Shown: one piece after another, positions 2,633-53,440 of the stretch | Layout of the letters: the number at the start of each line of letters is the position of its first letter | Position numbering within the stretch: position 1 is the stretch's first letter | Assembly (NCBI GenBank): GCA_017940265.1 | Contig: JAGAYY010000031.1 | Span: 9,151 to 73,150 of the forward strand | Reading direction: 5' to 3' | DNA length: 64,000 nucleotides | Source of the DNA: Bacilli bacterium | GTDB taxonomy: Bacteria > Bacillota_I > Bacilli_A > RFN20 > CAG-826 | Translations under genes and position numbers: made by a program | Notes under the pieces: generated by a model | What the model saw: only the letters and a program-made list of their open reading frames with translations | Database searches by the model: none | Told to the model about the DNA's origin: nothing

Positions 2633-2812
2633 AGTGGATAAGTCGACTTTTCCACATTTTCCACATCGATTTGCGTGAATACATTAACTTCGCATAATTG
2701 TCATTATGTTAACTTAAATAACGAAAAATAAAACATTTACTTCGTAATATAAAAGACTGACAAATGCAGTTTTTGACTTATACACTTACATTCATCAGTC
2801 TAAATATCCACA
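2633..2812. promoter_or_regulatory. Cluster of DnaA-box-like 9-mers
   Basis: Four sites match TTATCCACA at 8/9. They are 2633-2641 (TTATCCACT on the minus strand), a tandem TTTTCCACA pair at 2648-2656 and 2657-2665, and ATATCCACA at 2804-2812. A 7/9 site lies at 2528-2536. Confidence 0.35.
2687..2714. other. dif: dif chromosome-dimer resolution site (Xer target)
   Basis: ACTTCGCATAA-TTGTCA-TTATGTTAACT has 11-6-11 architecture. The inner arms CGCATAA and TTATGTTAA are identical to E. coli dif. The outer ends ACTTC and AACT match B. subtilis dif. It sits at the convergent strand switch. Confidence 0.8.
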
Positions 2813-2834
2813 TTTTAGCAGATTTTCAAAAGTA

Positions 2835-3455
2835 CTAGAAATCTACTAATTCTTCGGCGTCATGCTTTACGTAATTATTTCTAATGTAGCCAAGCGTGAC
2901 TGCTCTAAGAAGATTTAATTGTTCTGGTGTTAACCTATATCTATTTATGATTTCAACGCACACTTCACCATAATCTTTGATCAAATTCTTGTGAAATTGA
3001 GCATGTAAACCATTAATAGCTTCTTCACTTAGTAAACGTCTTTTGTCTATTGCTCTGATTTGATTGATAACCGCAATTGTTCTGTGCCCGCTGTTGATTC
3101 CTTTTATAACTCCGAGCCTAATATCACTCGCTGGATTCAGCTCTTTAATCTTTTCGGATTTAAGCGGCACAACAGTAATCAGCGGATTCAATTGATTTGA
3201 GTCTAAAAGAACTGCTACAAAATGATCGCCATGAAGCTCTGCACCAAATTCCATTGGAAATCTTGCTAAGTAAACGTCGCCTGCTTTGACCGCAAACTGT
3301 GTTTCAAAATATTTGTAGGCAAATAGATAAGTGTTTAATGCACCCATATATCTATGAGCCTTTTGTCCTTTGATATAAGGTTGAGCCATTGGAATTCTTC
3401 TTTTCTTAAGGATTAGCTGTTGTTTTTCCCTGACGGTAACTTTATTCTCTTTCAT
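2835..3455 (-). CDS. MazF/PemK-fold protein with N- and C-terminal extensions, and no adjacent antitoxin ORF
   Basis: The core GDVYLARFPMEFGAELHGDHFVAVLLDS...ITVVPLKSEK...RTIAVINQIRAIDKRRL parallels the MazF pattern GDxxxxxF.P..GsE..G.RPxvVxS...vvPxT...q.r.id..R. It has a strong RBS (AAAGGAGGGTG) and is monocistronic. Confidence 0.55.
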   Translation of the reverse strand: MKENKVTVREKQQLILKKRRIPMAQPYIKGQKAHRYMGALNTYLFAYKYFETQFAVKAGDVYLARFPMEFGAELHGDHFVAVLLDSNQLNPLITVVPLKSEKIKELNPASDIRLGVIKGINSGHRTIAVINQIRAIDKRRLLSEEAINGLHAQFHKNLIKDYGEVCVEIINRYRLTPEQLNLLRAVTLGYIRNNYVKHDAEELVDF

Positions 3456-3574: not shown

Positions 3575-4780
3575 TTAGTCAAATAATTCTTCAATTGGCT
3601 TTCCGAGTAAGTGTTCTGGTTTAGCAATTCCAAAGTTTCTAAGGACTGTCGCACCGATATCAGCGAAAGACGCTCTTTCAGGGAGAAGTCCACCATTCTT
3701 GAACGCTTTATTATAAATAATAAGAGGAATCTTTTCTCTTGTGTGGTCAGTACCAGTCCAAGTTGGATCGTTACCATGGTCCGCAGTGATGATTAACAAA
3801 TCATCGTCTTTAAGGAATGGTAAAAGTTCACCAACACGTTTATCAAATGCTTCAATACATTTACCATATCCGATTGGATTTCTTCTATGACCATATTCAC
3901 TATCGAATTCCACTAAGTTAACAAAGCATAAACCGGTGAAATCATGGTTTTTAGCCTCGTCAATGGTCTTATCCATACCATCTTCGTTAGAGACAGTCTT
4001 TTGTGTCTTAACGACGCCATACATGTCGAAAATGTCACCAATCTTACCGACACAGCTTGTCATGAAGCCGTTATCTTGTAAGACATTCATCACTGTTGGC
4101 GCGCTTGGCTTTAATGCTAAGTCATGTCTATGGCCTGTGACACGTTTGAAGTTGGTCTTATCTGTACCAACATATGGTCTAGCGATGATTCTACCAACCA
4201 TCCATTCAGGCTTCATACAAATTTCACGAGCGATTTCGCAACACCTATATAATTCTTCTAAGCCTGTGACTTCTTCGTGAGCGGCGATTTGAAGCACGCT
4301 ATCGCTTGATGTATAGACGATGAGAGAATTGTCTCGACATTGTTCTTCACCAAGTTCCACTAAAATTTCAGTGCCAGAAGCGGCTTTATTACCAATCACT
4401 TTGTGACCAGTTCTTTTTTCTAATTCATCAATGAGTTCTTTTGGAAAGCCGGTATCAGTAAATGTCTTAAAAGGTGTGACAGTATTAATACCCATAATTT
4501 CCCAGTGACCAGTCATTGTGTCTTTGCCATTACTCACTTCGTGAGCTTTAGTGATAAAGGATTGTGGATGGTTCACTTTGCTTGTGCCTCTAATTGGATC
4601 AAGGTCACCCATACCCATCGCGTTCATCACTGGGACATTTAAGCCATTAGGCATTTTCTCGCCAATGTGGACTAAGGTATTAGAGCCTTTATCACCAAAC
4701 TTATCAGCGTCTGGAAGATAACCGCTGCCCATAGAGTCAGCAACGATTACAAAAATTCTCTTAAAACGATAATTTTTCAT
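3575..4780 (-). CDS. deoB: Phosphopentomutase
   Basis: 401 aa. It has the metal-dependent alkaline-phosphatase-superfamily pattern, with ADSMGSG near the N-terminus and ITADHGNDPTWTGTDHTRE near the C-terminus. Confidence 0.9.
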   Translation of the reverse strand: MKNYRFKRIFVIVADSMGSGYLPDADKFGDKGSNTLVHIGEKMPNGLNVPVMNAMGMGDLDPIRGTSKVNHPQSFITKAHEVSNGKDTMTGHWEIMGINTVTPFKTFTDTGFPKELIDELEKRTGHKVIGNKAASGTEILVELGEEQCRDNSLIVYTSSDSVLQIAAHEEVTGLEELYRCCEIAREICMKPEWMVGRIIARPYVGTDKTNFKRVTGHRHDLALKPSAPTVMNVLQDNGFMTSCVGKIGDIFDMYGVVKTQKTVSNEDGMDKTIDEAKNHDFTGLCFVNLVEFDSEYGHRRNPIGYGKCIEAFDKRVGELLPFLKDDDLLIITADHGNDPTWTGTDHTREKIPLIIYNKAFKNGGLLPERASFADIGATVLRNFGIAKPEHLLGKPIEELFD

Positions 4781-4790
4781 TGTTTTTTCC

Positions 4791-5666
4791 TCACTTCATA
4801 ATCTTATCATAATCTGACTTCAGTTTCTCGCTAGAAACGTGCGTATATATTTGCGTTGTCGCAATATTTGTGTGTCCAAGCATCCCTTGCACCATGCGTA
4901 GCTGGGCCCCATGGTTGAGTAGATGCGTCGCAAAGCTATGTCTAAGCGTGTGTGGAGAAATGGTCATCTCAATGCCGGCCAATTCGGCATATTCACGCAC
5001 TTTCTTAAAGAAATAAACTCTGCTGAGAGGATTTCCGCTTCTATTAAGGAACAAATAGTCGCTCTTTTTAAATTCGCTTTTGTTACGGACTTCGTTGATA
5101 TATTTCTTGATATATTCAACTGCGTACTCAGCGATTGGGACTTTCCTCTCCTTAGCGCCCTTGCCAAAGACAGTAATGATACACTTATTTAGGTTCACTT
5201 GTCCACGTTTAAGATTTAAAAGTTCACTAACTCTTAATCCTGAGGAGTACATTGTCTCTAGCATTGCTCTATCTCTAATCCCACTTGGAGAAGTTAAATC
5301 AGGGGCTTCTAAAAGCCTATCAATCTCTTCTTCACTTAAGCAGTTTGGTAAGTGTTTTGGCTTTTTAGGTGTTTCAATATCGGGGATATTACCGATAAAA
5401 TAGCCTTCTTTCTTTAGAAAAAGATAAAAACTACGAGTGGAACTAAGTCTTCTTAAAGCGGTTGAAACGGATTTGCCTAACGAGAGTTCAAACTTTAAGA
5501 ACTCATATAAATCAGTTTCGAGTAAATCGCTTGTGTCTTTCTTATCGGAGAAATAGTTAAAGAAGGCTTGTAAGTCTTCTAAATAAGACACCCAAGTCTG
5601 TGGTGATAAGCCACGTTCCACTAAAACGTATTGTTGAAATAAATCAACGGCGTCTTTTATTTCCAT
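4791..5666 (-). CDS. XerC/XerD-family tyrosine recombinase
   Basis: It has an N-terminal SAM-like core-binding domain (VERGLSPQT). The catalytic region is HTLRHSFATHLL..GAQLRMVQGMLGH..IATTQIYTHV, closest in feel to RipX/XerD. Confidence 0.85.
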   Translation of the reverse strand: MEIKDAVDLFQQYVLVERGLSPQTWVSYLEDLQAFFNYFSDKKDTSDLLETDLYEFLKFELSLGKSVSTALRRLSSTRSFYLFLKKEGYFIGNIPDIETPKKPKHLPNCLSEEEIDRLLEAPDLTSPSGIRDRAMLETMYSSGLRVSELLNLKRGQVNLNKCIITVFGKGAKERKVPIAEYAVEYIKKYINEVRNKSEFKKSDYLFLNRSGNPLSRVYFFKKVREYAELAGIEMTISPHTLRHSFATHLLNHGAQLRMVQGMLGHTNIATTQIYTHVSSEKLKSDYDKIMK

Positions 5667-9094: not shown

Positions 9095-9166
9095 AATCTG
9101 TACCTACTAATAATATATCTTAAATATATTCGTTTGTAAAAGAAGAAAGTGGAAAAGTTTTCAGCG

Positions 9167-11437: not shown

Positions 11438-11502
11438 GTTTTTACCTCTGTAATTAGTAATTATTTAGTATTTTAATAGTTTTTGTATAACTATGTTATA
11501 AC

Positions 11503-22775: not shown

Positions 22776-25454
22776 TTAATCGTTAATGCCAATGAAGATT
22801 GCTTCTTCTGGTTCCGCAGATTTGTTGACACGTACTGGACGTGCTTTCTTCTTATTGGCTTTTGGTTTGATAATTCTAACACCGTGGAAGGCTTTAAAGA
22901 ACACTTGGGCTAATGGACCGAAACAGACGAGTGTAAGGCCAGTAGCAATGCTCACGCCTAAGATGACGGCTAAGAAGATATATGAGACATTTGTGAACAT
23001 GAAGCCGAAGAAGTTAACACCAAGGTATAAAGCCATAATGAAGGCAATGGTCATTGGTGTTGAGGCTAAAGCAGTAGCTTTAATCATCATTGCATTTCTT
23101 GCTTCAACGGAGTTGTCTCTATTACGATCATCGAGAATCATATCTCTTTCTTTATTCATTAAGATAATGCCAACCGCTAAGGAGAAGATGGCGACAAATG
23201 GAATTGCTAAACCAGCATAGGAAGTGACTGGTAAGAATCTTAACATCGCAAATAAGCCAGCGGCAATACCAGTGGCGCCAAAGCTTACGATTAAGGAAGC
23301 AAGGCCACGGCTTAAACGGTAACGGAGTAAGAGATAAACTGCACTAATACCTAAACCAACGCTTGTAGCGATGATTAAGGATGTAACAGAAGGTTGATCC
23401 GCACTAATTCTCACAGAATCCTTTAAGGAAACGTTAACATTAGCAGGCATATTGAGGTTTGCACCACTAGCGTTATTTAATTCATCAAGAGTGAAGAATT
23501 CGCTAACGGCGATTGGATTTAAATCACCATATTTGATCATTTCATCACCCTTCAATGGTTTATTGAAGTTAATGATGTAGTAACCATAGTAGACAGTAGC
23601 TGTACCACTTGCAGTGGTATCGTACTTAGAGGTGTATTCATATGTATCAAGTTCAGTAATTTCTTTTAAACTTGTGCCTTCTAAAGAGGCATTGTCTAAA
23701 ATAGCATCGATTCTTTCTTTAACATCAGAAGTTAATGTTGTATTACCAGCAACTTCACTGACATATTCAATATAGACTTGGCTATTGCCATATGGGGAAT
23801 CTGAACTATAGATAGCGCCTTTTTGCGCAATACCGAAGACGATCATAGAAGCCACACTAGCAACGAATAAGATAGCGGCAAGAATACCAACTGGTTTCTT
23901 ATGTTTTGTGAAGTCTTTGTCAGCGTTAGCGCCTTCGTATTTTTCTTTGCTTTCTTCTAAGCCATCAGCGACTTGATCTTTGCTGACATCGAATAAGTCA
24001 TAGCGACCAGCTAAGCCTTGTTCGTTTGTGACAAGCCATTCCATGCCACGTAAGAAGATGAGATTTAATAATAAGGAAACAACGCCACCTAAGATACTAA
24101 CGACAGCGAATGATTTCATCATAACGCCACCTAATAAGTAGCAAGCCACACCCATCGCCACTAAAACAACGTGTAAGTCAACGATTGGTAATAAGGACTT
24201 CTTAGCAGCTTCTGTATTAGCTTTCTTAAGAGTTCTACCACGGTAGCATTCTTCTTTGAATTTGTGCATATAGATGACACCGCTTAAGACACTGATTAAG
24301 CCTAAAGCGATTAAGCCAACCATACCAGCGACATTGAATTCAGCGCCTAATAAGACGACGAACAAGAAGCCTAAGAATGTAGCAATGATACTTGTCACTG
24401 CAATACCACTAGCGCCTAATCTATAGAAGTAGATAAGTAATAAGCTAATGACAGCGATAGCCACGATTGTAGCGATAAATGTTCTACTCCAGGCAATGGT
24501 CTTATGTGTGCCTAATTCCACTAAGCTTTCAACGAATAAGTTAGCGGTCTTAGAGAACATGAAGTCAACATGGTATTCCATTTGACCAGCATTGAGCAAG
24601 TTCACATAGTATTTTGCGTTTCTGAATGCTTTTCTTAAAGCGTCAGGAGAGACTTTACTATCTTCACCAACTTCTGGTTGGACATAAGCTCTTAAAGCGG
24701 TATGTTCTTCATCTAAGAATGGATCAGCAGCATCGAAAGTCATTAAGACTTTGCTAGCGATAGCTGCATCATATGTATCTTGAGAATTTTGATTGATTTT
24801 ATCATATGAGTAATAGTCTTCGATGTAGTCGTACCAGAGGTAGAGGTAAGCATGTCTTTTGGCTTCTTCTTCCTCTTCTTCACCTTCTTCGTGTTGGTGT
24901 TGTTCTTCGACTTCACCAGTATTGTTATCACTCATTTCCTTAGCTTCTGTATAAACAGCTTGGAATAATTCATTATCATAATTGATTGGAATGATGATTG
25001 TTGGATAGCCCTTATCACTGGTCCAATATGCTTCTTTATTTGTGTCGAGGAATTCAGTTGCTAAAGCATATGTTTCCTTTGAGTTTGAGATAGCCAAACT
25101 GGCATTAAATGAAAGGTAGTTTTGAATAATTTCGTATTCTTGATCTGTATCTTGAACGAAAGAAACTTTAATTGTATCAAAACCAGCGGTTTCAACTTTA
25201 TAACGAGAGATATCAGCAGTTGCTAATCTCTTTTCCATGATTTTTGCGGTTTCTTTAACAGCTTCATCATCGGTGAATTCATAGTCTTTGTCTGGATTAC
25301 CATCATCATCTTTAGCGTTGATGCGGAATGTTAATTCACGACCTCTCTCGAATTCGATATTACTGTTCATATTTGTAACTACGGTGGCAAATGTTGCCCC
25401 AACCATCAATAGCGAAGTAGCCGCTATGACAATATGTGACCATAATCTACGCAT
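22776..25454 (-). CDS. secDF: Fused protein-export membrane protein SecDF
   Basis: About 892 aa with two six-TM SecD/SecF modules and large external loops. The start is trimmed to MRRLWSH, preceded by AGGAGG. Confidence 0.9.
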   Translation of the reverse strand: MRRLWSHIVIAATSLLMVGATFATVVTNMNSNIEFERGRELTFRINAKDDDGNPDKDYEFTDDEAVKETAKIMEKRLATADISRYKVETAGFDTIKVSFVQDTDQEYEIIQNYLSFNASLAISNSKETYALATEFLDTNKEAYWTSDKGYPTIIIPINYDNELFQAVYTEAKEMSDNNTGEVEEQHQHEEGEEEEEEAKRHAYLYLWYDYIEDYYSYDKINQNSQDTYDAAIASKVLMTFDAADPFLDEEHTALRAYVQPEVGEDSKVSPDALRKAFRNAKYYVNLLNAGQMEYHVDFMFSKTANLFVESLVELGTHKTIAWSRTFIATIVAIAVISLLLIYFYRLGASGIAVTSIIATFLGFLFVVLLGAEFNVAGMVGLIALGLISVLSGVIYMHKFKEECYRGRTLKKANTEAAKKSLLPIVDLHVVLVAMGVACYLLGGVMMKSFAVVSILGGVVSLLLNLIFLRGMEWLVTNEQGLAGRYDLFDVSKDQVADGLEESKEKYEGANADKDFTKHKKPVGILAAILFVASVASMIVFGIAQKGAIYSSDSPYGNSQVYIEYVSEVAGNTTLTSDVKERIDAILDNASLEGTSLKEITELDTYEYTSKYDTTASGTATVYYGYYIINFNKPLKGDEMIKYGDLNPIAVSEFFTLDELNNASGANLNMPANVNVSLKDSVRISADQPSVTSLIIATSVGLGISAVYLLLRYRLSRGLASLIVSFGATGIAAGLFAMLRFLPVTSYAGLAIPFVAIFSLAVGIILMNKERDMILDDRNRDNSVEARNAMMIKATALASTPMTIAFIMALYLGVNFFGFMFTNVSYIFLAVILGVSIATGLTLVCFGPLAQVFFKAFHGVRIIKPKANKKKARPVRVNKSAEPEEAIFIGIND

Positions 25455-25560
25455 ATTTATTCCTCCTAATACGTGTATGTGCATTCGCTCGTAAGGCGAC
25501 GTCATTGAATAATATACTCTAATTACATAAGTAATTCAACATATTTATCGCACTTTCTAT

Positions 25561-30885: not shown

Positions 30886-31000
30886 AATGTCCCTCCTTCT
30901 AATTAATCACTAAGTACTCGCTATTAAGGTACTTAATAAAGTTTCATAAACCTTTTCTATGCGGTTGTAGCTAGTGAGGCGACAACGCATGTAATATAAC
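30886..31000 (-). promoter_or_regulatory. Structured 5' leader of rplU (L21-leader-like)
   Basis: Two strong hairpins on the minus strand: ATGCGTTGT...ACAACCGCAT and TAAGTAC-N11-GTACTTA. They lie directly upstream of the rplU SD, as in low-GC Gram-positive L21 leaders. Confidence 0.45.
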
Positions 31001-34565: not shown

Positions 34566-34790
34566 ATAAGATCTCCTATAAAATAAAAACGCCCTATCTA
34601 AGGACGCTCTCACGTGGTACCACCTTAGTTCGTAGAATCATCTACGCACTTCATTAACCTATTTTCGCTAGGTAACGATTCCTCCAAAGCGACCTTCATC
34701 TACTTCTTCTATCGAGCTTCCACCATCCTCGATTCTCTATGAGAAGATTTATAGATTACTCCTCTTCTTCAACGGACGATAACATTATAC
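34566..34790 (-). promoter_or_regulatory. T-box riboswitch leader of valS
   Basis: The minus strand carries the T-box sequence AACTAAGGTGGTACCACGTG (plus-strand 34605-34624). A terminator follows (GCGTCC-ttagata-GGGCGT plus TTTTTATTTT). An AGAGA box is present, and a GUA (Val) triplet sits in the GAAGAAGUAGAUGAAGG candidate specifier region. Confidence 0.85.
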
Positions 34791-39464: not shown

Positions 39465-40379
39465 TTAAAAATCTTCTAAGTGGGCTTTAATTTTATTAAC
39501 TTCTTCACGAATTTCTTCTTCGCTAAGGTTATATTTCTCGCACATTTTAGATAAGCTAGTATCTTTACTTTGGAGTAATTCTTTAGCGATGTAACCAAAG
39601 ATTACGAGTAATTCTTCTTTAGAATAATTAATTTGATTTGGATAGATATAAACCATATAGGAAGATAAAACGTTAACAGCGTTTTGGCTTAAGGAAGGAT
39701 CATGATATTCGTTTTGGAATAATGATGTGATCTCTTCAATATTACCTAAACCTTTAATGACAAATGGTTCATCAAGTTCTTTAGGAACAACGGTAATGAT
39801 TCTATCATTTTGTAGGAATTCGACATTCTTATCATATTTATACGCTACAAGTAAAAGAAGAGCGTAGGTTCTCACTAATTGCTTAGGATAAGTCTTCATG
39901 ATATTGAGGATTGGAAGAAGGAAGTTTTCAACTTGTTGACCTCTGACCGCATCAAGAGCGCTTAAAACATCAACATCGTTTTTAGATAAGAGTTTCTTTC
40001 GAATCTCATCTTGACCTACTTCTTGACGTTTATAGACTTTGATTTCTTCTTCTCTAATGTATTTTGGAAGACGGTTTAAAAGCTCTTCTGTTTCTTGATT
40101 TTCATAAGGTAATTCTTGATAGTAACGAAGTTCACTATATGCTTCATCAAATTTACCTAATAAGCATAATAATTCAATATGAATTTTCATTAAAACGCCT
40201 GGCTTATTGAGTAAGATTTGTCTTTTAGCATTGATTAACTTTAAAGCATCATCACTATGACCGGTGGCAAGTAAAGCACTGAGACGATAAAAGATGGCTA
40301 AAGAGTCTTGACTATTCTCCGTTAATTTCAAGACTAAGTCATATTGTTTTTTATCCATTAAACTTTTTAATGAGTCCAT
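39465..40379 (-). CDS. Helical-repeat (TPR-like) protein of unknown function
   Basis: 304 aa, all-helical by composition, lying 6 nt downstream of rarA. No catalytic motif is recognisable. Confidence 0.6.
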   Translation of the reverse strand: MDSLKSLMDKKQYDLVLKLTENSQDSLAIFYRLSALLATGHSDDALKLINAKRQILLNKPGVLMKIHIELLCLLGKFDEAYSELRYYQELPYENQETEELLNRLPKYIREEEIKVYKRQEVGQDEIRKKLLSKNDVDVLSALDAVRGQQVENFLLPILNIMKTYPKQLVRTYALLLLVAYKYDKNVEFLQNDRIITVVPKELDEPFVIKGLGNIEEITSLFQNEYHDPSLSQNAVNVLSSYMVYIYPNQINYSKEELLVIFGYIAKELLQSKDTSLSKMCEKYNLSEEEIREEVNKIKAHLEDF

Positions 40380-50223: not shown

Positions 50224-50563
50224 ATATTTATATTATCACCATTTAGAAGATAAAGTAATCTATACATATTTTTCATATAAAAACGCTTTTCCCAAGTGCT
50301 TATTATTTTCATAATTATCTAAGCAAACACAATCTTAATAAATATTGATTATGACAGATATTTTTAATTTTTTCCAAAACTATTAATCAGATAAATAAGA
50401 TTTTCATACAAAAATATGAATATGTTTATTTAGGCTTCATATTTTTGTTTAAAGCGCATTCTTCGTAACATATATTTTTATCTGTTGGTATCATACTATT
50501 TTGCGTTATTATTACAATTTTTTAGTATGCTATCACAATGTTTTTTTACAAGGAGGTATTAAA

Positions 50564-53440
50564 ATGTTAAAAAAACTTATTTTAGGTTTGCTAGCAGTGA
50601 GCATTTTAGGTTCGCCGGCAATGCAATTATCTAGAAGCACAAATGATGCAGACCTAAACATTCAAGCTAAAGAGCAAGACATTGCTCACAAGCGTTTTGG
50701 AGGAATCAGTCCAGTATCATACACTGATGCCGGTATGTTCTCATCTGAAGATCTAACTATTGGTCGAGGTAAGTTAGATCCAGTGATTCGTCTACGTACA
50801 TTCAGCATAATTGTCGAAGGTTCAAATATCGAGTATTCATCAAATGATGGCACTGTCATTACCAAAAAAACAATTAATTCTAAAAAACGTAGTACTGAAT
50901 TTTTAATTAAAGTCAATAAAACTGTTGGCGTTCACGAATTTCTTTATGGAGCTGGCACTAAAACGAGATGTGTTTGTAGAGTTTTTTCTTATGTATATAA
51001 AAATGAAGTGTACATATCTGAAGACTCCAAAGAAGATGCCTGGCGCAAAGCACTTGATTATGACATAAAAAACGAATTAATAACAAAGCAAGAAATAGAA
51101 GACAGTTATTCTAATTTTCTTTTGTCATCATCACCAAATAGTAATCAATTAGGAATTGATTCAGTACCTGCCGATGTCTTGTATGATTATTATGCCAGCC
51201 AGCCAGAAAACTCTTCAGCTTGTTTTTATGCTACACCACGATGGCAGGATAAAAATGGGAACTGGTCTTCTTTGACACTATGCAAAGCATCGCTTTATAT
51301 TAACGGCAAATGTGCTCAAACTTCCGCCCTTAATGAAAGAGGATTCGTTTCTTTTAGTATTAATAACAATAGTAATTATTGGGGAAAACAATGCAAAGTT
51401 CAGCTGAGAATATACACTCAAACAGATACATTCACTTTGGGAAGCGATTATTCAACAATCGTCGATGGAACTAACTATGGCGCGTTTGATGGATACTATA
51501 TGATTCCTTCCGAAGAACATACTGTGTATATAAATGAAGATACTGATTTTTATATTCCAGTTGATAGATCTTATGAGCAATATGAAAAAACTTCAAGAGC
51601 CATGTCTTTGTGTCAATCATTAGCGCTGTGTGAAACTTTTGCGAGACAAAACATCAACGGGTTTGATGGGCATCCAAATCTAATTACAAGCCATTTAAAC
51701 GTTGAAACTTCTTATAACGCTTGCAATTTCAATTTAAATGAATCATCAACTCTGTATTTTGAAGCCGAAGAAAGATGGATCTTGCCTTTCCGTTTATATG
51801 GATTATTTGTCGAAGGCGTTTTAGGCATGCTTAGCTCAAATACAATCATGAATTATTATGACGATTATGGCAATTTCATGTATGAGGACAACTGGATGTA
51901 TGGAAAAGAAATGTCTGCTCAAATAGTATGGCATAGAGCGTTAGCTGATATGTTTGCTATTCTAGCTTACGATTCTGTAAAAGATAAAATTGGCTATTTA
52001 GCCACTACAGAATCAATAAGAGAATTAATAGAAATGATTGAAAACTACACACCAGATGAACATGCAGGTGAAGGCTCCATTTTGTGCTCGACTGTATATC
52101 TATATAACATCTATTCAGGTTACACGGCGAAAAATGGCCAAATTGTTCCTGGTAAAAACGATAGATACGCCACTTTCTTTAACTTCACTTTCATTCCAGG
52201 TGCAAATACTTTAAGAGAGTTTTTGAGATTTAACTTTCCAGGAGAAGATCCACTTACACACAAAGCAAATAATTCTCTTTTAGAAAGATTATGTATCGCT
52301 CCAAGTAATGTTAAATTGGTGAATCAAATCACAGATTATAATAGACCTATTTTCGAATGGAACGCTGGAGGCTGCTTGGCATCCCCAAATGATGTTTTTG
52401 ATTTATACATTTATGGAGAAATTGACTTCAAAATCGAAAACATTAGAAATAATAGTTATTCTTTGAATAATGGTATTGTGAGGTATACATTATCTCTCGA
52501 AGACAAAGCTAGACTTTTAGAATCAATGGGAAAAGAAAATAGTTGTTATGCCATAGTATGCGCTTATAAAAAAATGGAGGGAAATTATGATACCGGTCCT
52601 TATTTTTCAACCGCATACCACATTGTCAATCCTGTAATAATCGATGACGAACCGATATACGAAACAGAAATACATTATTGTCTTTTTGAAAGAGATGAAA
52701 ATGGAAACAATACGCAATATAAAGGATTTGAAGAAAAAACATATGTCAAATTCACACAATCATGCACAGCCATGTTCTTAACAAGAGGGGATGTAGATTC
52801 TATAATAACCATTTCAGATTTAGATGGACAAGCATTGGCACAAGATTCATATGGTGGTTTTGGAGACAATGCTATGATTTCACTAGGTGTTATAGCCAAT
52901 GAAATATATGAAATCAGTGTTAAAACAATTTCAAGCAATCGTAATTATCAAGCATGGAGTAGGTTTGACATAATTCCAACCGTAAATAGTTATGACGACA
53001 ACTACCAGATCAATCATCCTACAACGTACAACGAAATCATGAAAATCGATTATGATGCAGATTATTGGCAAAGACCAGACTACGATCCAGAACTTGATTA
53101 CGATTATCTTCATGATTTTAATGTCGAACAAGGTAGTACATCAATGTTTCTCTTTGAACCACAATATGGTGGCGGATACCATCTTGATGTTAGATATATG
53201 TCAAATATCCATTTGATCATAATGTGCTTAGGGCAAACAACTCCGTGGGACTATGACTATTATTCTGGTGCCTCTTCTTATTCAATTGGTTATTTTGAAG
53301 GCTATATCAACATTATGGAAGGCGACACTTGCATGATATTAGTCTCTAGAGAAGATAGAAATGCTAATATCGGACCAAGCACTCTAAGCCAAAGCTTTAC
53401 ACTAAAATTCGGATGCACCTATCTTGATGGAGATTGGTAA
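50564..53440 (+). CDS. Large secreted protein of unknown function (958 aa)
   Basis: The start is preceded by AAGGAGG, and there is a signal peptide (MLKKLILGLLAVSILGSPAMQ). I find no recognisable catalytic motif and no HExxH. The C-terminal portion has two beta-rich modules resembling pre-peptidase C-terminal domains. Confidence 0.7.
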   Translation: MLKKLILGLLAVSILGSPAMQLSRSTNDADLNIQAKEQDIAHKRFGGISPVSYTDAGMFSSEDLTIGRGKLDPVIRLRTFSIIVEGSNIEYSSNDGTVITKKTINSKKRSTEFLIKVNKTVGVHEFLYGAGTKTRCVCRVFSYVYKNEVYISEDSKEDAWRKALDYDIKNELITKQEIEDSYSNFLLSSSPNSNQLGIDSVPADVLYDYYASQPENSSACFYATPRWQDKNGNWSSLTLCKASLYINGKCAQTSALNERGFVSFSINNNSNYWGKQCKVQLRIYTQTDTFTLGSDYSTIVDGTNYGAFDGYYMIPSEEHTVYINEDTDFYIPVDRSYEQYEKTSRAMSLCQSLALCETFARQNINGFDGHPNLITSHLNVETSYNACNFNLNESSTLYFEAEERWILPFRLYGLFVEGVLGMLSSNTIMNYYDDYGNFMYEDNWMYGKEMSAQIVWHRALADMFAILAYDSVKDKIGYLATTESIRELIEMIENYTPDEHAGEGSILCSTVYLYNIYSGYTAKNGQIVPGKNDRYATFFNFTFIPGANTLREFLRFNFPGEDPLTHKANNSLLERLCIAPSNVKLVNQITDYNRPIFEWNAGGCLASPNDVFDLYIYGEIDFKIENIRNNSYSLNNGIVRYTLSLEDKARLLESMGKENSCYAIVCAYKKMEGNYDTGPYFSTAYHIVNPVIIDDEPIYETEIHYCLFERDENGNNTQYKGFEEKTYVKFTQSCTAMFLTRGDVDSIITISDLDGQALAQDSYGGFGDNAMISLGVIANEIYEISVKTISSNRNYQAWSRFDIIPTVNSYDDNYQINHPTTYNEIMKIDYDADYWQRPDYDPELDYDYLHDFNVEQGSTSMFLFEPQYGGGYHLDVRYMSNIHLIIMCLGQTTPWDYDYYSGASSYSIGYFEGYINIMEGDTCMILVSREDRNANIGPSTLSQSFTLKFGCTYLDGDW

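Follow-up and report, generated by a model that had tools for sequence, protein, structure and literature searches.

A highly probable chromosomal dif site of an uncultured Erysipelotrichaceae-like bacterium and the conserved DnaA-box-like motifs that flank it

Among the described dif sites, the closest to the one treated here are that of Escherichia coli, served by XerC, XerD and FtsK, and that of Bacillus subtilis, a 28-bp site with an 11-6-11 layout served by CodV and RipX. The B. subtilis translocases SftA and SpoIIIE are not known to activate CodV/RipX directly, and the control of Xer recombination in Firmicutes was considered an unsettled question in a 2017 review (PMC5357621). In streptococci and lactococci (XerS and the 31-bp difSL) and in the epsilon-proteobacteria Campylobacter and Helicobacter (XerH/difH) a single recombinase does the work, and tight linkage between its gene and the site is a hallmark of such systems (PMC5357621, PMC1914069). 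Published criteria for the prediction of dif are similarity, palindromic structure, single occurrence and closeness to the skew shift point (PMC3025954). We have analysed a 64-kb stretch of DNA (positions 9,151 to 73,150 of contig JAGAYY010000031.1, GenBank assembly GCA_017940265.1), which will be called the window. Positions 2687-2714 of its plus strand are, very probably, the chromosomal dif of an uncultured rumen/gut Erysipelotrichaceae-like bacterium (Bacilli), the place where its replichores meet.

The 28-mer ACTTCGCATAATTGTCATTATGTTAACT consists of a left arm ACTTCGCATAA (2687-2697), the central region TTGTCA (2698-2703), which would be the strand-exchange segment, and a right arm TTATGTTAACT (2704-2714), all read on the plus strand. 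By homology with the E. coli and B. subtilis sites (PMC5357621) the left arm would be the XerC/CodV-type half-site and the right arm the XerD/RipX-type one. Between the arms 8 of the 11 positions are complementary, which is the imperfect dyad symmetry of a classical dif. The original prediction, made from the letters of the sequence, had described an 11-6-11 imperfect palindrome at these positions with inner arms CGCATAA and TTATGTTAA identical to those of E. coli dif, and the coordinates, the geometry and the identity of the inner arms were all borne out. Compared with E. coli dif, the site matches at 20 of 28 positions (8 in the left arm, 2 in the centre and 10 of the 11 in the right arm), the differences being in the outer left arm and the centre. 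Compared with B. subtilis dif (in the version used for the original prediction), it shares the ends ACTTC and AACT and the inner TTATGT, whereas its left inner arm is the E. coli-type CGCATAA instead of CTAGAA or CTATAA and its centre is TTGTCA instead of TATATA. This also comes to 20/28; the shared outer ends had been seen correctly, but the count of 19 given for this comparison was wrong. The count of 20 for E. coli was right, but a score of this size is at chance level when taken alone. In windows resampled with a first-order Markov model, 20 or more matches were reached somewhere in 32 of 200 for E. coli dif and in 51 of 200 for B. subtilis dif. As this raw similarity occurs in 16-26% of resampled windows, we have not relied on it as evidence.

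Much more specific is the membership of the site in a sequence family. We used a degenerate pattern, ACTTCNNATAATNNNNATTATGTWAAC, with 21 specified positions, which was written to cover this site together with the Bacillus/Staphylococcus type and which the site accordingly matches at 21/21. Even when up to three mismatches are allowed, only 0.03 matches per shuffle are expected, and the exact match is beyond chance. The 28-mer is also single in the window at up to three mismatches, and the second-best match to the arms has 6 mismatches over the 22 arm positions. At least 120 DNA stretches matched the pattern, with one match per stretch in 119 of the 120 listed. The genera among the matches listed include Bacillus, Staphylococcus, Lysinibacillus, Gracilibacillus, Enterococcus and Lacticaseibacillus, and the commonest sequence among them, ACTTCCTATAATATATATTATGTAAACT (the Bacillus/Staphylococcus type), shares 21 of 28 positions with the window site. 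Of the 44 listed pattern loci that extend 2 kb or more in both directions, 43 have a higher GC skew to the left of the site than to its right, and none has the reverse sign pattern. In four complete chromosomes the pattern site lies at 44-56% of the length. Matches in Longimicrobium and elsewhere are understandable because the Firmicutes-type dif profile reaches many phyla (PMC3025954). Judged by its letters, the window site belongs to the classical Bacilli dif family, which would thereby be extended to rumen Erysipelotrichaceae-like bacteria with an E. coli-type left arm. A dif-like 27-mer of the same pattern was also present in seven IMG/VR contigs (L197-L203), which could be elements of the IMEX type (integrative mobile elements exploiting Xer) or host DNA included in prophage calls.

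The conservation of the site was followed at two levels. An exact-match scan that covered 185,579 species with one genome each, and identical copies only, found the 28-mer in 10 genomes of other species, once in each. All of them are uncultured metagenome-assembled genomes (MAGs) from rumen, gut or digester, labelled Erysipelotrichaceae, Bacilli or Bacillales, and the gene order around the 28-mer is the same in all 10. These species can be quite divergent (their NadD-YqeK proteins, encoded next to the site, are 40-99% identical and their PemK-like proteins, encoded on its other side, only 29-40%), and the intergenic DNA around the 28-mer is not alignable between them. A second search, seeded with NadD-YqeK, retrieved 52 loci, and in ca. 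30 of them one dif-like site was found downstream of nadD-yqeK by a Hamming search that allowed up to 9 mismatches placed anywhere. Here the variation is concentrated in the central 6 bp, for which there are nine versions (TTGTCA, TTGCCA, TAGTCA, TTGTTA, TTTCTA, TGAATA, TGTCCA, TGTATA and TTTCCA), always of the form T-NNNN-A. Over 24 non-redundant loci the arms had a mean pairwise identity of 96%, compared with 74% in the centre and 33-41% in the flanks, although the sites behind these figures had been chosen with a pattern that fixes some of the arm positions; for this reason it is the Hamming search that gives unbiased support. In the same 24 loci the left arm varies only at position 6 (1/24) and position 7 (C/T, 3/24), and the right arm only in its outermost bases. 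Conserved arms around a variable centre are, at the level of sequence, the signature of a Xer core site, in which the arms would be held by two DNA-binding proteins and the centre need only be identical between the recombining copies. All these related sequences are MAG contigs, and the uniqueness of the site is that seen in the window and in the exact-match scan.

On the local scale, the location is that of a terminus. The site lies in a gap of 362 bp between the stop of the nadD-yqeK fusion gene (2472) and the stop of the first minus-strand gene (2835). Plus-strand genes (1-2472) had been predicted to meet some 40 kb of almost exclusively minus-strand genes at this gap, and indeed the minus strand carries every credible gene between 2835 and 42305. 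When the neighbouring sequence is included, the left side of dif has plus-strand genes over ca. 29 kb, where GC and AT skew are positive, and the right side has ca. 61 kb of mostly minus-strand genes with negative skew, over which the cumulative skew of the window declines steadily. The same picture was found in 20 of 21 loci, with GC and AT skew positive on the left and negative on the right, convergent genes, and coding bases that are at least 86% plus-strand before the site and almost all minus-strand beyond it. Merging overlapping loci gave five contigs with 21 kb on the left, where 17 of 19 genes are on the plus strand; their cumulative G-C maximum falls 42-50 bp from dif in three and 1.6-2.1 kb from it in the other two. 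Metagenome contigs added a further 7-8 kb on the left with plus-strand genes only. The heptamer GAAGAAG, of the A-rich type reported as the lactococcal orienting motif (PMC5357621), is biased to the leading strand on both sides (48:7 right of dif and 5:0 left), while the E. coli KOPS motif (FtsK orienting polar sequence) GGGNAGGG is not present in the window. On this local scale the polarity is that of a terminus and not of an origin, and the skew, the strand bias and the cumulative G-C maximum all support what had been proposed from the orientation of the genes. A position at the GC-skew switch is also shared with B. subtilis dif.

Another line of evidence is a gene for a tyrosine recombinase of the XerD type (4791-5666, minus strand) located 2 kb from the site. 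Its product scored 303 bits against PRK00283 (cut-off 279) and 322 bits against the XerD model TIGR02225 (cut-off 329.6). Among solved structures the best match is E. coli XerD (1A0P, E 3.5e-57), with an alignment that runs from end to end and includes all the catalytic residues (Arg, Lys, His-x-x-Arg, His and Tyr). The match to XerH (5JJV) was far weaker, and the XerS model NF003462 gave 113 bits for a cut-off of 267. Although a recombinase of the XerD/RipX type is what would be found in B. subtilis, the presence of its gene at 2 kb from dif is a difference from that species. Such a gene is found within ca. 2 kb of dif in every locus of the clade, and the order dif, deoB, xerD appears in 26 of the 120 other Bacilli loci listed (L063-L182), many of them from uncultured Bacilli and Mollicutes-like lineages. 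This linkage to the presumed site is unusual for two-recombinase systems, and it is noteworthy because tight linkage of gene and site typifies the single-recombinase systems of XerS and XerH. Neither a second Xer gene (xerC/CodV) nor a gene for an ftsK-family translocase was found in the 64-kb window.

Family membership, the pattern of arms and centre, the single exact copies, the local switch and the intact XerD-type gene nearby all support the identification as dif, which is how the site had been interpreted in the original prediction. There are also points that weigh against it. In 64 kb of AT-rich DNA a raw score of 20/28 is within what chance can give. The coding strand is a confounder for both GC skew and the GAAGAAG bias, the related loci are syntenic, so that their skew and orientation results are not mutually independent, and the evidence for the switch is of local scale (about -29 to +61 kb) and comes from MAG contigs. 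One locus (L040), with only 3.7 kb on the left, is the sole exception in which no skew switch was seen, and the recombinase stays, by its sequence score, just under the curated XerD equivalog cut-off (322 vs. 329.6 bits). If the mechanism is that of E. coli and B. subtilis, a chromosome dimer would arise after replication whenever the sister chromosomes had crossed over an odd number of times; the left arm would be bound by a XerC/CodV-type recombinase and the right one by the XerD/RipX-type product of the gene 2 kb away (PMC5357621); two dif copies would then synapse, and strand exchange across TTGTCA via a Holliday junction would give back the monomers. We infer the assignment of the arms, the recombination and any dependence on a translocase of the FtsK/SpoIIIE type by analogy with those two species. 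As such, the identification of a dif is routine and brings little that is new in itself. For a contig of an uncultured lineage it shows where the replication terminus lies, which is of use for MAG scaffolding, replichore assignment and growth-rate (peak-to-trough) estimates.

The unexpected part, and the only one that might repay further work, is the presence of conserved motifs on both sides of dif that resemble DnaA boxes. On the left there is a tandem pair, TTTTCCACA TTTTCCACA, on the plus strand (2648-2656 and 2657-2665), which ends 21 bp before dif, preceded by an inverted motif, TTATCCACT (2633-2641, minus strand), that forms a palindrome with the first box of the pair (AAAGTGGATAAGTCG / CGACTTTTCCACATT). 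On the right, ATATCCACA (2804-2812, plus strand) has its TCCACA core starting 92 bp (zero-based offset) past the end of dif, and a weaker motif, TTATACACT, is found at 2778-2786. Searching TTATCCACA with up to one mismatch gave three matches within 33 bp and a fourth 139 bp further, all in non-coding DNA, and this is the densest such cluster in the window. The enrichment is a property of the whole clade. Counted over the 24 non-redundant loci, the 120 bp before dif contain 31 copies of the core TCCACA/TGTGGA and the 120 bp after it 27, when ca. 0.4 per side would be expected from the 3 occurrences in 21.6 kb of other intergenic DNA of the same loci. In other words, the motifs are about 70 times commoner within 120 bp of dif than in the rest of the intergenic DNA, and every one of the 24 loci has at least one. 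The consensus of 61 occurrences is TTWTCCACA, that is, the DnaA-box consensus. Loci with these flanking motifs are L001-L043, L069, L073, L078, L108, L110, L160 and L176.

The placement of the motifs is also remarkably constant. In 15 of 25 non-redundant loci the left tandem cores keep the positions -36 and -27. On the right, 25 of 26 loci, the most distant included, have a TCCACA of the same orientation between +76 and +99, in most cases between +87 and +93. Nearly all boxes have one and the same orientation, on both sides of dif. One locus (L032) has an insertion of two genes that separates nadD-yqeK from dif, and its left box is still beside dif; the right-hand box is kept in lineages without the PemK-like gene. 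The boxes follow dif rather than the neighbouring genes. Because the orientation is the same on both sides, they are not polar signals like KOPS. They were also discarded as promoter elements, since there is no convincing sigma-70 promoter in the gap and the spacing to the AT-rich stretch beside the left arm is too short. Nor are DnaA boxes beside dif a general property of Bacilli, being confined to relatives with a left arm ACTTCG... and to a few unrelated lineages such as Longimicrobium. In two Longimicrobium loci (L121 and L140) and one of Anaeroplasmataceae (L131), 2-3 copies of TGTGGA(A/G)A stand within 60 bp to the right of dif, directly beside the XerD-type arm; this arrangement is different from that of the window clade and the genomes are phylogenetically distant.

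Many Bacillaceae (ca. 18 genomes) carry an imperfect palindrome of ca. 35 bp, TCTCACTAT-N3-AAGTATACTT-N-TGAGA, 15-30 bp from the XerC-type arm, on the left of dif. Across the loci L075, L076, L080, L083, L088, L091, L100, L118, L127, L136, L142, L143, L146, L153, L164 and L167 the spacer before TGAGA is N5-7. Their palindrome, with its TCTCAC...AAGTATACTT...TGAGA layout, is unrelated to the TTWTCCACA motifs that flank the window site, although it holds the equivalent position beside dif. The plasmid sites cer and psi also have conserved extra DNA at a fixed distance beside the XerC-type arm of the core site, but the context of the window is chromosomal, its motifs are DnaA-box-like instead of ArgR, PepA or ArcA sites, and the most widely conserved of them is on the side of the XerD-type arm. 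We found in the searchable literature no description of DnaA boxes or accessory elements beside a chromosomal dif, nor of the Bacillaceae palindrome. The most economical reading of the flanking motifs is probably that they are bound by a protein at the DNA level, for which DnaA, an AbrB-like protein (if they are read as TGGNA-N4-TGGNA) or some other protein may be candidates. The more definite proposal, in which dif would be the centre of a ca. 200-bp module and the TTWTCCACA sites on either side would be bound by DnaA or another protein, is one that we consider tentative and, on present sequence comparisons, rather unlikely. Such sites may serve in the accessory control of Xer recombination, or may couple the last-replicated locus to the availability of DnaA. 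Should they be true accessory sites, they would offer a handle on the control of Xer recombination or on the behaviour of the terminus in Firmicutes, and together with the Bacillaceae palindrome they would point to lineage-specific accessory proteins at the chromosomal dif of Bacilli, with a bearing on the control of CodV/RipX.

Other explanations for the site have to be considered. One would be that it is served by a single linked recombinase that binds both arms, in the manner of XerS/difSL of streptococci or XerH/difH of epsilon-proteobacteria. The gene 2 kb away in every clade locus and the 26 of 120 other Bacilli loci listed with dif-deoB-xerD order recall those systems, in which the recombinase gene is likewise linked to its site; B. 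subtilis RipX can bind both half-sites (PMC5357621), and the window contains no second Xer gene. However, the absence of xerC from 64 kb is uninformative for the genome beyond them, the site is of the classical asymmetric 28-bp kind and not a 31-bp difSL, the outer halves of its arms differ (ACTTCG vs. AGTTAA) as they do in two-recombinase sites, and the protein is a good match to XerD and a poor one to XerS (113 bits, cut-off 267). With a site and a protein that are both of the classical type, this explanation is therefore improbable.

A second alternative is that the sequence belongs to a mobile element, either as the attachment site of an IMEX or a prophage or as a multimer-resolution site of the cer/psi kind. 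Dif-like sequences do occur in such elements, as in the seven IMG/VR viral contigs with the relaxed pattern, and the conserved motifs beside the core loosely recall plasmid accessory sequences. But the viral-contig sites are in unrelated, mostly high-GC DNA without a skew switch, and the only match in the plasmid database is the dif of a Ralstonia megaplasmid. In the window, on the other hand, no second dif-like copy that could bracket an insertion was found within the 64 kb, there are no phage, plasmid or other mobile-element genes, and the neighbours are housekeeping genes in synteny across species, all of which makes a mobile origin very improbable. The last possibility, a chance palindrome or an operator or terminator that has nothing to do with Xer recombination, could appeal to the abundance of imperfect palindromes in AT-rich intergenic DNA and to the 16-26% of resampled windows that reach a 20/28 likeness to the E. 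coli or B. subtilis site. It is effectively refuted by the 100% conservation of the 28-mer across species in the midst of intergenic DNA at background identity. A hairpin would not have arms that are individually conserved and merely 8/11 complementary around a varying loop-equivalent centre, an operator would have no promoter to regulate between two convergent gene ends, and there is no credible match to any Rfam family.

The dif site is found between two conserved blocks of genes. On the left, the plus-strand operon contains yqeH (114-1103), yhbY (1106-1393) and the nadD-yqeK fusion (1393-2472; 359 amino acids, PRK07152), in which NadD (nicotinate-nucleotide adenylyltransferase) and YqeK (an HD-domain Ap4A, or diadenosine tetraphosphate, hydrolase) are joined as in mycoplasmas, something that fits a Mollicutes-related lineage. 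The operon appears to end at an intrinsic terminator on the plus strand (2499-2524) with a 6-bp stem, four of its pairs G-C, followed by a run of T. On the right, the minus-strand run includes a PemK/MazF-like gene (2835-3455; 206 amino acids), deoB (3575-4780) and the recombinase gene, followed by dinB, xseB, xseA, nusB and asp23 and continuing up to 42305 with tkt, aspS, hisS, relA, recJ, ruvB, ruvA, nadE, obg, valS, lon, tig and mgsA. With such housekeeping genes (aspS, hisS, valS, relA, ruvAB, obg, lon and tig) the replicon is an ordinary low-GC (ca. 36%) bacterial chromosome. A hairpin AGACTGA...TCAGTCT followed by a T run (2754-2801, minus strand) is the likely terminator of the xerD-deoB-pemK-like unit; other loci have a hairpin of different sequence in the same place.

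The PemK-like gene has some peculiarities of its own. Its product has the MazF/PemK fold with extensions of ca. 55 amino acids at the N-terminus and ca. 60 at the C-terminus, there is no antitoxin gene adjacent to it, and it evolves fast (29-40% identity between species). In this clade the gene always adjoins dif, its stop codon is TAG in every locus translated, and homologues are rare, only 159 among 5.8 billion proteins. We considered it as a terminus DNA-binding protein and rejected the idea, since the structural model (pLDDT, the predicted local distance difference test score, of 83) gives only the MazF/PemK ribonuclease fold plus the extensions, and the gene is missing from several lineages that retain the flanking motifs.

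Several smaller elements are conserved around dif. An AT-rich stretch, GAATACATTA (2677-2686, plus strand), abuts the left arm; its clade consensus AATATAnnA is kept in nearly all 24 loci, the most distant included, with a pairwise identity of 52% against 34-41% for the wider flanks. Some 22-23 bp to the right of dif there is a TTAC-N3-GTAA palindrome (TTACTTCGTAA, 2737-2747), conserved in many clade loci. In the window it is part of a direct repeat of 15 nt, one copy of which is in the left dif flank (2678-2692) and the other at 2730-2744, with 87% identity. Further away, direct repeats of the form TACTA-N6-TACTA(AT), with 11-bp spacing and 2-4 copies, extend over the final codons of the PemK-like gene and its stop (2832-2851, with TACTA-N6-TACTAAT at 2833-2850). 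TACTA doublets are found as well at 11454 (minus strand, ca. +8.7 kb from dif) and, in merged contigs (L183 with L013, and others), at ca. -18.4, -13.8 and -3.4 kb, which makes 5 in 30 kb when ca. 0.7 would be expected. They are mostly at gene ends and their positions are kept between species, and they are not specific to dif. They are reminiscent of the Ter sites of the B. subtilis replication terminator protein (RTP) and of the DnaA-trios of oriC, but as Ter sites they find no support; the polarity of the copy at +8.7 kb is wrong for a fork trap. A structured RNA in the gap was also discarded, as the only Rfam hit there (PYLIS_5, 2755-2837, minus strand) has 24.6 bits for a gathering threshold of 60 (E 0.086); it begins at the TAG stop of the PemK-like gene and is most likely due to chance. 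In the rest of the window, three open reading frames were without a Pfam match at E 1e-5 (22776-25505, minus strand, 909 amino acids; 39465-40379, minus strand, 304 amino acids; 50501-53440, plus strand, 979 amino acids). Two leaders did exceed the Rfam gathering threshold, both on the minus strand, a T-box upstream of valS (34597-34781) and an L21 leader upstream of the rplU-rpmA region (30903-30976).

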